Below are positions 5,645-39,816 of a stretch of DNA of 39,816 bases, in pieces. Under the pieces are notes generated by a model. The model worked only from the letters and a program-made list of their open reading frames with translations. It made no database searches and had not been told where the DNA came from. The stretch lies in the sequence record NC_011040.1; one strand, given 5' to 3'. Each line of letters opens with the position of its first letter. Within the stretch, counting starts at the first letter, position 1. The position numbers were made by a program, and so were the translations under genes. Source of the stretch: Escherichia phage BA14.

Positions 5645-5667
5645 TAATACGACTCACTATTGGGAGA
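5645..5667 (+). promoter_or_regulatory. Phage RNAP promoter TAATACGACTCACTATTGGGAGA
   Basis: Full 23-bp match to T7-family consensus except T at -1; transcript begins with a GGGAGACCC...GGGTTTCCC 5' stem-loop. Confidence 0.85.
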
Positions 5668-26186: not shown

Positions 26187-26216
26187 CCGTAAACACCCCC
26201 CGACTCATTTAGTGAA

Positions 26217-32600: not shown

Positions 32601-33554
32601 CAGGGTGTGATGGGTGATGTGGTCACTCATGCTATCACTGGCAAGGGTGCCAACAAGTGGATTAAGAAGGACATGCTGAAGTCTGCGAGTATCTCAAAGG
32701 AACAGTGGGAAGGCATTCAGAACCTCATCCGTGAGAACGTCACTCAAGGTGCTGACGGTAAGTACACCTTCAAGGACAAGCGCAAGCTGGCTAATGACCC
32801 TCGTGCTATGGACTTGTGGCGCTTAGCTGATAAGGTTGCCGATGAGACAATGCTGAGACCTCACAAGGTTTCACTTCAGGATTCCCATGCGTTTGGTGCC
32901 GCTGCCAAGCTGGTGCTTCAGTTCAAGTCCTTTGTCATCAAGTCGATGAACGCTAAGTTTATCCGCTCTGGTCACGAAGCTATGAAGAACCATCGTGCTA
33001 TGGACATGGCGCTGACCTATGCTATCTCTGGTGGCATTGCTGGCTCCTACTATGTTGCACAGGCTCACTTGAAAGCTGCTGGTCTTCCTAAAGAGCAACA
33101 GAAGGATTACTTGAAGAAAGCTCTCGACCCGAAGATGATTGCCTACGCTGCGGCCTCCCGAAGTTCACACTTAGGGTCTCCGTTGAGTATCGCTAACTTC
33201 GCTATGGGTGCTGCTGGTTACGACCAAGGTCTTATGGTTCGCTCTACGATTCTACCGAAAGGTGATGACAAGCGCGACCGCAATAAGGCAGTGACTTCAC
33301 GTGACATGGGTGATTCCATTATGGGCGCTATTGGTGAACAGGTTCCTGCTCTTGGCTTCGCTGGTGCAACTCTTGCTGCTGGTCGAAATGCTTATGGTGT
33401 CCTTACGGCTCCTAACAAACCGACCGAGCGTGAGATGATGACTGGCTTAATGAATGCTCACCGAGAGATGATTCCTAACGACCCAATCTCTCAACAGATG
33501 CTCATTAAGTTCTATGAGGCCAACGGTGTTCACATTAAGGCTGACAAGAAGTAA
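29607..33554 (+). CDS. 16: Internal virion protein D with N-terminal lytic transglycosylase domain (gp16)
   Basis: 1315 aa from GTG 29607 (RBS AGGAGG); N-terminal SLT-like block GLLRKVGWVESRF.PTAQSPTGPRGVMQFT and long collinearity with T7 gp16. Confidence 0.95.
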   Translation: MDKYNPNEPHEYDALFQQAADTHGVSYGLLRKVGWVESRFKPTAQSPTGPRGVMQFTKATGQAYGLQNDEDFTDPAKSIDAGARYLADLVKKYDGDELKAALAYNQGEGRNGKPQLEAYDSGNFASIGDEGRNYLRSLLDVAKSPKSGDIESFGGITPKAKGIPFDAAMSGIGKKGKVTTELPESHEMSFQGKEQAAPNQPFGKDYWEAKGTTLDEANERSTFFGFGNAAEAELSNSTLGVAFRAGKRDNGFDVLTDVLQPTRFNSHIWTPEELNKIRTEVKNPAYMNVVLGGSAENLDELIKMANENFEADAKAAEAGLGAKLSAGLIGAGVDPLTYVPIAGATAKGFKLVNKALVVGAQAGMLNVASEGLRTSVAGGDAHYAEAALAGMLLAGGLTAVADGVAAGLRKSGAEQIENPFAAAQMRFEARETARNTGGYDASRMPPSEDRVFSQHNGVEYAPLETEPGAVVLKDGSIISDTNLANPMTAKEFAEVDPERAAWGLPMRGLSEIGLRTLRSEHAEIRGLAKDLVRSPTGMESGSHGKFGATASDIKERLHSNNQRTYNDLYGAMKEAMADPEWSVGMFKQGAQGARQEIYRRVAIAIERPELQANLTKAERKVMDIMKEHFDLKREMMENPSMFGNKANSIFPNSRHKGTYVPHVYSREAKQLYSQALGGSDGLQEAIAASWMTSYRSRPEVKARVDEHLAETLGIDVKAVTEEMVMKHASDKAYGIAKTDQFNSSSVIDDNIEGLVGIENNSFLEARNLFDSDMPVTLPNGQQFSVNDLRDFDMKHVMPAYDRRVDGDIAIMGGTGKTTAELKDAIMALDKKSEGKGTMKGEVEALKDTVKILTGRARRNHDTVGDTMFRALSDMSFFTKNAYMGLQNLTEISGLLAKGNTRAMLHGIPALRDLAFRNKPVSGKELKELHSMVFGKEFDDLIRPARQDIIQRLRESTDTPDLAAKVVGTIKHTTQELAARSPFTKFLNGTSNYILDMARQGVMGDVVTHAITGKGANKWIKKDMLKSASISKEQWEGIQNLIRENVTQGADGKYTFKDKRKLANDPRAMDLWRLADKVADETMLRPHKVSLQDSHAFGAAAKLVLQFKSFVIKSMNAKFIRSGHEAMKNHRAMDMALTYAISGGIAGSYYVAQAHLKAAGLPKEQQKDYLKKALDPKMIAYAAASRSSHLGSPLSIANFAMGAAGYDQGLMVRSTILPKGDDKRDRNKAVTSRDMGDSIMGAIGEQVPALGFAGATLAAGRNAYGVLTAPNKPTEREMMTGLMNAHREMIPNDPISQQMLIKFYEANGVHIKADKK

Positions 33555-33555
33555 A

Positions 33556-33578
33556 CAATACGACTCACTATTGGGAAG
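33556..33578 (+). promoter_or_regulatory. Phage RNAP promoter cAATACGACTCACTATTGGGAAG (phi17-like)
   Basis: T7-family promoter 2 nt after the gp16 stop; leader forms a GGGAAG...CTTCCC stem-loop. Confidence 0.8.
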
Positions 33579-33626
33579 GCTCTCACAGCTTCCCTCCTAT
33601 TATACCTAACCGAAAGGAGGCTACAG

Positions 33627-35594
33627 ATGGCTAATAAAATTTCCACTGTACGTACTTACCCGCTGAACGGTGCCGTGAACTTCACGATTACCTTTGAGTA
33701 TTTAGCACGTAAGTTCGTCCAAGTGACACTCATCGGGAAAGACCGTAAAGAGTTGGTTCTCAATCAGGACTATCGCTTTACCACTAAGACCCAAATCACA
33801 ACCTCCCGTACATGGACTGCCGCTGATGGTTATCAGATGATTGAGATTCGTCGATTCACATCTGCAACCGACCGTCTGGTTGACTTTGCTGATGGCTCAA
33901 TCCTTCGTGCGTATGACCTTAACATCTCACAGATTCAGACGCTGCACGTAGCTGAAGAGGCACGAGACCTAACTGCGGATACCATTGGTGTCAACAATGA
34001 TGGTCACTTGGATGCCCGTGGTCGTAAGATTGTGAACCTAGCGTTCGCCACCAGTGACTATGATGCTGTCCCACTGAAGCAAGTAAAAGAGCGCGAGTCG
34101 TCTGCTTGGAACGCTGTTAACAAGGCCAATGAACATGCTAACCGCTCTAACACTGAGGCTAACCGCTCGCGAGATGAAGCTGACCGTGCAAAACGTGAAG
34201 CTGACCGCTCAACCCAACAGGCAGGTGTCTCTACGGCACAGGCAGTTGAGTCCAAGAAGCAAGCTGACCGTTCCAACTCTGAGGCTAACCGAGCTAAAGG
34301 TTATGCTGATAGTATGACCGCAAGTGTCGCTGAGGCCAAGAAGCAAGCTGACCGTTCCAACTCTGAGGCCAATCGTGCCCGTGATGAGGCCAATCGTGCT
34401 GCCGGAGAAGTGACTAAGGCTGCTGCTGAGGTTGCCAAAGCTGCTGCACACGTTGCTACCGCTAAAGGTCATGCTGACCGCGCCAACACTGAGGCTAACC
34501 GTTCCAAAGGTGAGGCTGACCGTGCTAAGGCCGAGGCCGATAAGTTGGGCAACATGAATGGCCTAGCTGAGACAGTTGAGAAGGTTGATGCTCCAGATGT
34601 CTACTTCAAGCGTAATGTGATTGCTGGCCACCGTCTGGAGACTAAGGGTGGTTCCCATCTACACCCTAACGAGTTGAAATTGGTGAACACTAAGTCTCCT
34701 GACCAGCACTTTATCGTACAAGCATGGGGCACTGGTGACCCAAACAATAGGGCACAGGTGTTTGAACTTAGGGATAACTTAGGTCCATATGCGTTTTACA
34801 TTCAGCGAATGAAGAAGACTGACCAAACGTGGCAAATGAGTGTGAATGGCACTGTTAGCTGTGTATCCGTTGAGGCTGGTAAGGGGTTCATCTCTAAGGA
34901 CAGTACAGGCTCTATTCAAATGAAAACGTGGGGTGGCAGTTGGAACCAGTGGACATCAAATGCTGTTCCAGACATTCAGCATGACATCGAAGCCCAACAT
35001 GATGCGGCTTATCTGCTGGAGAGGGCAACCATTTGGGGCAAAGAGCACCTGTATGCTAAGTGCTTATACAACAATGGCGGTGGCGCTAACTTCTTTATCA
35101 GACATTATCTCCGTGGGACTTACTTCGACTTCAGGAGTGATGGTACTCTTAGTGGCTCGACTGGTTGGTATATCCCGCCAGATGGCAACCTGTACATCAA
35201 GAAATATGGACTGTATATTGATACGTGGGTTAACAATCGCTTGGGCGAACACGCCTACAATAAGGGCGAAGTCAACAACTTGGTCAATGGTCGTCTTACC
35301 GCTGGTCAAGGTGATGGTCGATATGTCCGCAAGAACGCTGGGTGGGCTGAGGTCTGGAAAGGCTCTGCTGGTGGTGGTGTCTCCGTAGGTCTCTCACAGG
35401 ATGTCCGATGGAGAACTATCTGGATTCAAACTCAAGGACGCTGGAACCCGGTTCAGATTGGCGATAACGGGCCATACTACATCTCTTCTATGGGTGGGTG
35501 GCTACAGTTTACAATCTCCAACAACGGGAGAACTTTCCGAAATGATGCTGACCGTAGTTCTGTACCTACGAGAATCTTAGTTCAAAACCAATAA
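33627..35594 (+). CDS. 17: Tail fiber protein (gp17)
   Basis: 655 aa; N-terminal ~150 aa and C-terminal ~90 aa match T7 gp17; central coiled-coil region is repeat-expanded. Confidence 0.95.
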   Translation: MANKISTVRTYPLNGAVNFTITFEYLARKFVQVTLIGKDRKELVLNQDYRFTTKTQITTSRTWTAADGYQMIEIRRFTSATDRLVDFADGSILRAYDLNISQIQTLHVAEEARDLTADTIGVNNDGHLDARGRKIVNLAFATSDYDAVPLKQVKERESSAWNAVNKANEHANRSNTEANRSRDEADRAKREADRSTQQAGVSTAQAVESKKQADRSNSEANRAKGYADSMTASVAEAKKQADRSNSEANRARDEANRAAGEVTKAAAEVAKAAAHVATAKGHADRANTEANRSKGEADRAKAEADKLGNMNGLAETVEKVDAPDVYFKRNVIAGHRLETKGGSHLHPNELKLVNTKSPDQHFIVQAWGTGDPNNRAQVFELRDNLGPYAFYIQRMKKTDQTWQMSVNGTVSCVSVEAGKGFISKDSTGSIQMKTWGGSWNQWTSNAVPDIQHDIEAQHDAAYLLERATIWGKEHLYAKCLYNNGGGANFFIRHYLRGTYFDFRSDGTLSGSTGWYIPPDGNLYIKKYGLYIDTWVNNRLGEHAYNKGEVNNLVNGRLTAGQGDGRYVRKNAGWAEVWKGSAGGGVSVGLSQDVRWRTIWIQTQGRWNPVQIGDNGPYYISSMGGWLQFTISNNGRTFRNDADRSSVPTRILVQNQ

Positions 35595-39622: not shown

Positions 39623-39816
39623 TCTCATAGTTCATACAAAGTGTTTACCCCCTATGGCCTCCTTCAGTTCCCCAAAGAGTGCCACCCCTTATGGTAACTT
39701 ATGGTTTACTTAATGTCAATCATTATGTGAGACATTGGGTGAATCATTGGGATGACCACTAGATATAGTGTGTGGGAGACCTTATGACCACTATATGTAG
39801 TCCTCTCTGTGTCCCT
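39623..39816. repeat. Right direct terminal repeat (exact copy of 1-194)
   Basis: Identical to bases 1-194. Confidence 0.95.

Follow-up and report, generated by a model that had tools for sequence, protein, structure and literature searches.

In the tail fibre gene of Escherichia phage BA14 (gene 17; positions 33627-35594, plus strand), the central part is made of reiterated DNA units and contains a perfect direct repeat. The window, i.e., the whole stretch of DNA analysed, is sequence record NC_011040.1 with its 39,816 nucleotides (nt). The repeats are probably accounted for by two things together: the heptad periodicity of the rod of a T7-type fibre, and a short patch of gene conversion that has made two stretches of the rod identical at the DNA level without changing its length. 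The locus is not a length-variable repeat locus, since the polymorphism that defines such loci was sought and is absent among the relatives examined.

The exact repeat, CCAAGAAGCAAGCTGACCGTTCCAACTCTGAGGC, occupies 34252-34285 and 34336-34369 on the plus strand, 84 bp from start to start. A first-pass annotation of this DNA had quoted a 32-mer at 34254-34285 and again at 34338-34369, 84 bp apart; both copies are there and are identical, but the match includes two further bases on the 5′ side and thus measures 34 bp. It is the longest exact internal repeat of the 39.8-kb window, surpassed only by the 194-bp terminal redundancy and followed by phage promoters of 20-26 bp. The degenerate copies that had been reported around it are real as well. 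They form a family of five 68-nt copies, with 62-79% identity and spacings of 21, 105, 84 and 126 nt, in addition to two arrays of 21-bp units on the plus strand detected by Tandem Repeats Finder, one at 34137-34210 (3.5 copies, 73% matches; ANRSNTE ANRSRDE ADRAKRE ADRS) and one at 34473-34537 (3.1 copies, 72% matches, no insertions or deletions; ADRANTE ANRSKGE ADRAKAE). All these spacings, in the 68-nt family and in the arrays, are multiples of 21 nt, i.e., of one heptad.

The protein sequence explains this spacing. The region encodes an alpha-helical heptad rod, the proximal half-fibre, at residues 150-316 (34074-34574, plus strand), as identified from the heptad table, the helices of a structural model and a partial alignment with the T7 rod. 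Written in rows of seven, residues 162-315 of gp17 give 22 heptads in a single register without interruption. Ala occupies position 3 in 16 of them and Val in 5; at position 6 there are 13 Ala and 8 Ser. Of the 24 rows listed, 21 have Ala or Val at position 3 and 23 have Ala, Ser, Met or Leu at position 6. Judged by sequence, such a periodicity corresponds to the a/d positions of a coiled coil whose core consists of small residues. An AlphaFold2 model of the gp17 monomer, computed from a 69-sequence alignment, predicts helices at residues 150-243 and 251-316 with a predicted local distance difference test score (pLDDT) of 63-81, as expected of a helical rod, and part of the rod aligns with residues 178-297 of the T7 rod in the match to the PDB. 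The break between the two helices (residues 244-250, 34356-34376) falls exactly in the second copy of the repeat (SNSEANR), with a pLDDT below 50; it is probably an artefact of modelling a monomer, whose chain folds back on itself, or may be a genuine hinge. By analogy with T7 gp17 and with a multimer model of the ETEP21B fibre, the rod is presumed to be a parallel trimeric coiled coil. The type x-E/Q-A-D/N-R-S/A-x accounts for about 12 of the 22 heptads, compared with 0-6 per rod in other rod classes, which argues that the rod arose as a heptad unit was amplified specifically in this lineage. The helical heptad rod is thus supported, and the description of the shaft as a repeat-expanded coiled coil holds in a historical sense.

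The fibre is indeed about 100 residues longer than T7 gp17 (655 against 553 amino acids, a difference of 102), but the shaft accounts for only part of this. Measured from the motif DAVP, which closes the N-terminal domain, to NGLA, which closes the rod itself, the rod has 165 residues in BA14 against 123 in both T7 and T3, and the additional 42 residues are exactly 6 heptads. Beyond the rod, BA14 has 344 residues compared with 283 in T7. The placement of the extra length in the shaft therefore stands for 42 of the 102 residues and fails for 61, which are found in the distal, receptor-binding half of the fibre.

Within this rod type the length of the rod is constant. All 15 fetched fibres of the same type, from twelve Berlinviruses and from the Teseptimaviruses IME390, Yanou and Ebrios, have a rod of 165 residues that aligns column by column without a gap; their total length ranges from 569 to 674 residues and this variation is wholly distal. 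When a phage database was searched with the rod by blastn, 69 of 70 matching records covered it in one piece, and among the matches listed all 60 had equal query and subject spans, with no net insertion or deletion, at 82-96% identity. A scan of IMG/VR with a 27-nt core returned six contigs, five with two copies 84 bp apart and a sixth with a single copy, in a Berlin-like state and with an unchanged rod length; altered repeat spacing was found in none of the six. A scan of JGI metagenomes for rod length variants gave 0 matches. The proposal that slippage or recombination at these repeats alters shaft length had been made together with the remark that a lack of length variation among related fibres would speak against it, and in the close relatives (fetched fibres, listed matches and IMG/VR contigs alike) no variation of rod length, and no polymorphism in repeat number, was found. 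Nor does the gene contain long head-to-tail units of high similarity: the 34-bp patch alone is identical, and the arrays match at 72-73%.

Over the wider family, an anchor alignment mapped both anchors in 130 of 139 fibres. The 130 fibres show 14 rod lengths, and six of these classes (98 of the 130 proteins) differ from BA14 by a multiple of 7, counts that are not phylogenetically independent and come from a list of proteins of at most 576 amino acids in which long fibres are under-sampled. The BA14 rod type is the longest class among the 130 surveyed, and the classes that depart from a multiple of 7 include rods with obvious non-helical Pro/Gly inserts. Between deeply diverged rod classes, length shifts mostly by whole heptads.

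The constant length within the BA14 rod type suggests stabilising selection on the shaft, and since no variant differing by four heptads has become fixed anywhere, such variants would presumably be selected against. A bolder reading, to which we give a small chance, goes one step further and takes the 34-bp repeat to be an in-register switch, yielding in each lysate rare fibres that are shorter or longer by four heptads and that are purged by selection for an exact length. A change of four heptads would amount to about 4 nm, taking 0.15 nm per residue, and an exact length might matter, for instance, for stowing the fibres against the capsid or for reaching the cell surface. The block of low diversity that surrounds the repeat would then be the footprint of a recombinational sweep, by which a favoured rod segment passed across the Berlinviruses and some Teseptimaviruses. 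If this were true, rod length would be a tightly selected trait that is open to experiment.

It is improbable that the exact repeat arose by recent tandem duplication and marks an active length-variable locus, at which slippage or unequal recombination makes the shaft differ between isolates. Deletion between direct repeats becomes steeply more frequent with repeat length. The geometry would lend itself to such events, since with a 34-bp direct repeat at a distance of 84 bp any deletion or duplication would take away or add exactly 4 heptads and keep both frame and register, and the deep rod classes do differ from one another, mostly by whole heptads. Deletion between direct repeats reportedly occurs in T7 (Pierce, Kong and Masker 1991, cited in PMC4417187). 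However, outside the patch the two 84-nt units are no more alike than background, with 48% identity on the upstream and 51% on the downstream side compared with a mean of 48% (standard deviation 11%) for pairs of heptad-register segments in the rod. The border of the patch is sharp: the four residues that follow (A N R A) are the same in both units, but each of them is written with a different codon. Moreover, no relative of this rod type has a different rod length, and the phages that are without the exact repeat are not 28 residues shorter, so that the duplication is contradicted at the level of the isolate. With background-level flanks and with equal length in repeat-less phages, a recent 84-bp tandem duplication was rejected.

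The related phages point instead to conversion. In Berlin, PYps50T and PcCB251 the rod is as long as in BA14 and the first copy is conserved, while the second copy is divergent: the second unit reads GHAESASK in Berlin, GHADRSNN in PYps50T and EHADRSMR in PcCB251, its identity to copy 1 is 58-72%, and the longest identical run between the units in these phages is 5-9 nt. Together with the background-level flanks, a divergent second copy at equal length argues for conversion and not for duplication. Copy 1 (34252-34285), which encodes (S)KKQADRSNSEA and of which phage Berlin has kept 34 of 36 nt, would be the donor; copy 2 (34336-34369), which encodes (A)KKQADRSNSEA, would be the converted recipient. 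A further sign of exchange between units comes from PYps50T, whose second unit shows 86% identity with a third one, GHADRSNTEANR. An exact patch of 34-37 nt is present in ETEP21B, BSP161, P483, S523 and FE44, and one with 1-3 mismatches in PhiV-1, CarlSpitteler, PZJ0206, 285P and Yanou; its presence across relatives indicates that it was inherited and is not peculiar to the BA14 isolate. In Ebrios both copies carry the same codon change from AAC to GGC (N to G), and in IME390 both carry AAC to GAC (N to D), which is the pattern expected of concerted evolution, yet it is seen in two lineages only and parallel selection could also act.

Both copies lie in a segment of about 280 nt (34186-34466, plus strand) that is probably a recombinant block common to many Berlinviruses. 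Diversity at third codon positions among relatives is 0.11-0.26 in this segment as opposed to 0.32-0.57 in its flanks, and the block is 97-100% identical to BA14 in phages whose flanking rod is at 71-91%. Its synonymous diversity is far below that of the rest of gene 17, the N-terminal domain included. It appears to be common to the Berlinviruses and three Teseptimaviruses, while Berlin and PYps50T are without it. The history of the block conflicts with that of the N-terminal domain: the derived sites of BA14 are shared with PYps50T and with S523 in a ratio of 53 to 5 in the N-terminal domain and of 8 to 30 in the block (gene nt 561-840; Fisher p 1e-12), and two further trios of phages behave similarly. 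These conflicting counts indicate homologous recombination between phages, with breakpoints inside the rod and always in register.

Low diversity at synonymous sites is also what one would expect if the repeat and its block were kept by a function at the nucleotide level, for instance as an RNA structure or regulatory site or through an overlapping gene, and an antisense open reading frame of 87 codons (34209-34472) coincides with the block. We nevertheless regard this as highly improbable. Compared with shuffled controls, the RNA of the segment folds more weakly (z = +2.4); Rfam yielded nothing above chance (the sole match is SNORD48, E 0.79), and no promoter or terminator pattern was found in the segment. 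The antisense ATG, which corresponds to the sense His codon CAT, is changed to CAC in PhiV-1, PYps50T and PcCB251, and the annotated genes of the relatives are all on one strand. The block is furthermore absent from Berlin and PYps50T, and the phylogenetic conflict is accounted for by recombination. The open reading frames that overlap the rod, at 34129-34317 (plus strand), 34058-34276 (minus strand) and 34209-34472 (minus strand), with 62-87 codons, were treated as artefacts of composition because codons with a stop codon as their complement are few in the rod, because the start of the longest is not conserved and because the relatives have one-stranded genes. As to chance or convergence, by which a peptide conserved at both sites (KKQADRSNSEA) would have been written twice in the same preferred codons, there is next to no room for it: given the identical peptide and the codon usage of this phage, all 11 codons coincide with a probability of about 6e-5, so that protein conservation alone fails to account for the exact repeat, the following four codons differ for the same residues, and the protein of copy 2 differs in the outgroup-like phages.

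Heptad periodicity with a conversion patch is thus the explanation that we favour, and it can be put as a sequence of events. A single heptad or double-heptad unit (x-E-A-D/N-R-S/A-x) would have been amplified long ago to build the rod, and in this rod type it would have left the rod with 6 heptads more than that of T7 or T3; the DNA repeats would then be the nucleotide trace of a continuous heptad repeat of about 165 residues in the proximal rod. In an ancestor of the clade that contains BA14, some 35 nt of the first unit (KKQADRSNSEA) would have overwritten the start of the unit four heptads downstream, by short-tract intragenic gene conversion or a template switch, with no change of length. 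The converted haplotype may then have spread among the Berlinviruses within the block of about 280 nt by in-register homologous recombination, with rod length held constant across the rod type by stabilising selection. Changes of host range would come about separately, through a swap of the distal half of the fibre at a conserved junction at the end of the rod.

Several points weigh against this account. The direction assigned to the conversion depends on three outgroup-like phages, and genes of this family recombine freely. Of the database records with an unbroken rod, about 27 are near-identical Yersinia pestis phages, which leaves the independent lineages well below 60. That length is under selection is inferred solely from consensus genomes, in which variants are absent but which are blind to rare variants within a lysate. 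The AlphaFold2 model is a monomer of moderate confidence in which the helix is broken and folded back at residues 244-250, and the trimeric coiled-coil state is inferred from T7.

The end of the rod deserves attention as the putative junction between the two halves of the fibre. This conserved sequence, EADRAKAEADKLGNMNGLA, lies at 34512-34568 (plus strand) and stands out both as the place where homology stops and by its matches across genera. Homology with many relatives ends at gene nt 934-959, and the rod-end sequence (34512-34590; EADRAK.EADKLGNMN.LA) has 82-92% nucleotide identity to Pseudomonas, Erwinia and Pectobacterium phages in which no other stretch matches. Among 69 fibres, R299, A300, E303, A304, K306, L307 and N311 are invariant or nearly so. 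The rod end is likely a junction for the exchange of distal fibre halves, a process well known in kind. Distal to it, residues 317-564 (34575-35318, plus strand) form a mosaic region, predicted to be rich in beta strands by AlphaFold2, in which most of the variation in fibre length is located. Its identity to BSP161, PZJ0206 and P483 is 34-57%, compared with 76-90% to ETEP21B and PhiV-1; the stretch of gene nt 991-1530 is at 76-90% to ETEP21B/PhiV-1 and at 42-53% to BSP161, and the last ~170 nt of the gene are 100% identical to BSP161. No fibre in the databases has this distal combination, and no record of the phage collection contains the whole BA14 fibre gene. As sequences, both BA14 and its mosaic fibre are new. 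The feature belongs to a known kind, and the architecture of the nearest full-length homologue, the ETEP21B fibre, has been published.

By each defining feature tested, the BA14 fibre is a member of the T7 gp17 family. The assignment of the 655-residue product as a tail fibre, made in the first-pass annotation, is borne out by the open reading frame itself, by a Phage_T7_tail domain (PF03906) on residues 1-154 with E 2.3e-49 and 167.5 bits against a Pfam cut-off of 25.2, by a match to T7 gp17 in the PDB (E 3e-100) in three stretches, residues 1-189, 219-338 and 565-655, and by gene order. Residues 1-154 (33627-34088, plus strand) form the N-terminal tail-attachment or adaptor domain, which matches N-terminal structures of T7 gp17 (7boz, 8e4g, 8dsp). 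Residues 565-655 (35319-35591, plus strand) make up a T7-like C-terminal tip domain that is homologous to T7 gp17 residues ~465-553, matches residues 137-228 of PDB entry 4a0t with E 3.8e-24 and is a beta-sandwich in the AlphaFold2 model, with pLDDT 84-95. The terminal domains had been described as T7-like; this applies to the N-terminal domain and to the tip but not, by sequence, to residues 322-564, for which the PDB search detected no match to T7.

Gene 17 is preceded by an open reading frame of 1315 codons that ends at 33554 and followed by small open reading frames from 35607 onwards. The BA14 fibre gene occupies the same slot as in collinear annotated relatives, which have the order gp16, fibre, holin (gp17.5). 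A phage RNA polymerase promoter lies just 5′ of the gene at 33554-33579 (plus strand), a 26-nt sequence, AACAATACGACTCACTATTGGGAAGG, with a second occurrence at 26215; its core, AATACGACTCACTATTGGGA, is found at five further sites, and the relatives annotate a promoter in the equivalent position. In the window as a whole, 20-26 nt phage RNA polymerase promoters with this core are located at 5645, 18153, 20745, 21736, 26215, 33554 and 39069. The first 194 bp of the window are repeated exactly and directly at its end (1-194 and 39623-39816), from which it follows that the window is a complete T7-like linear genome that includes its terminal redundancy. Over its first 25 kb it is about 93% identical to members of the genus Berlinvirus (PYPS50, 285P, FE44, BSP161, PZJ0206), which is the genus nearest to the whole.

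Among characterized systems, T7 gp17 (NP_042005; PDB 7boz, 7ey9 and 8e4g for the N-terminus, 4a0t for the pyramid and tip) shares with the BA14 fibre the PF03906 adaptor, a helical heptad rod and the C-terminal tip, and in both the rod ends in ...EADKL.N.NGLA...; the heptads are, however, of the A-D/N-R type in BA14 and of the F-R-N-E-A type in T7. The best full-length matches to the gene in the phage collection are the Berlinvirus fibres of ETEP21B (WYD65257.1), PhiV-1 and CarlSpitteler, which at 655 residues have the same length and layout as BA14 and are collinear with it at 81-85% nucleotide identity. ETEP21B also has the 34-bp repeat in exact form, and PhiV-1 and CarlSpitteler have it with 2-3 mismatches. 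The BA14 gene is nevertheless a different mosaic from that of ETEP21B, as its first ~800 nt are nearest to BSP161/PZJ0206 and its last ~170 nt to BSP161 (93-100%), while its middle is closest to ETEP21B/PhiV-1 (76-90%). An AlphaFold2-multimer model of the 655-residue ETEP21B fibre has been described, with an adaptor, a flexible coiled coil, a pyramid region and a tip (PMC11267873). Yersinia phage Berlin and Yep-phi (569 residues), PYps50T (642) and Pectobacterium phage PcCB251 (674) have a rod of the same type and length as BA14, but differ from it in their divergent second copy and in their distal halves. The Cedecea phage Yanou has the same rod type with another distal part, followed by a gene annotated as tail fibre assembly protein that BA14 does not have. 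Coiled-coil surface proteins with variable repeat numbers, e.g., the streptococcal M proteins, and contingency loci in general offer a further comparison. BA14 resembles these surface proteins in its reiterated fibrous units and in the signs of exchange between units; their copy-number polymorphism was not found among its relatives.

Heptad-repeat rods in T7-type fibres are textbook knowledge, and the feature matters little in itself. The strict constancy of rod length, in spite of an in-frame 34-bp repeat through which four heptads could be deleted, makes shaft length look like a selected dimension of the fibre. The interior of the rod and the junction at its end appear as sites of in-register recombination, which is relevant to the construction of chimeric fibres for changing host range.

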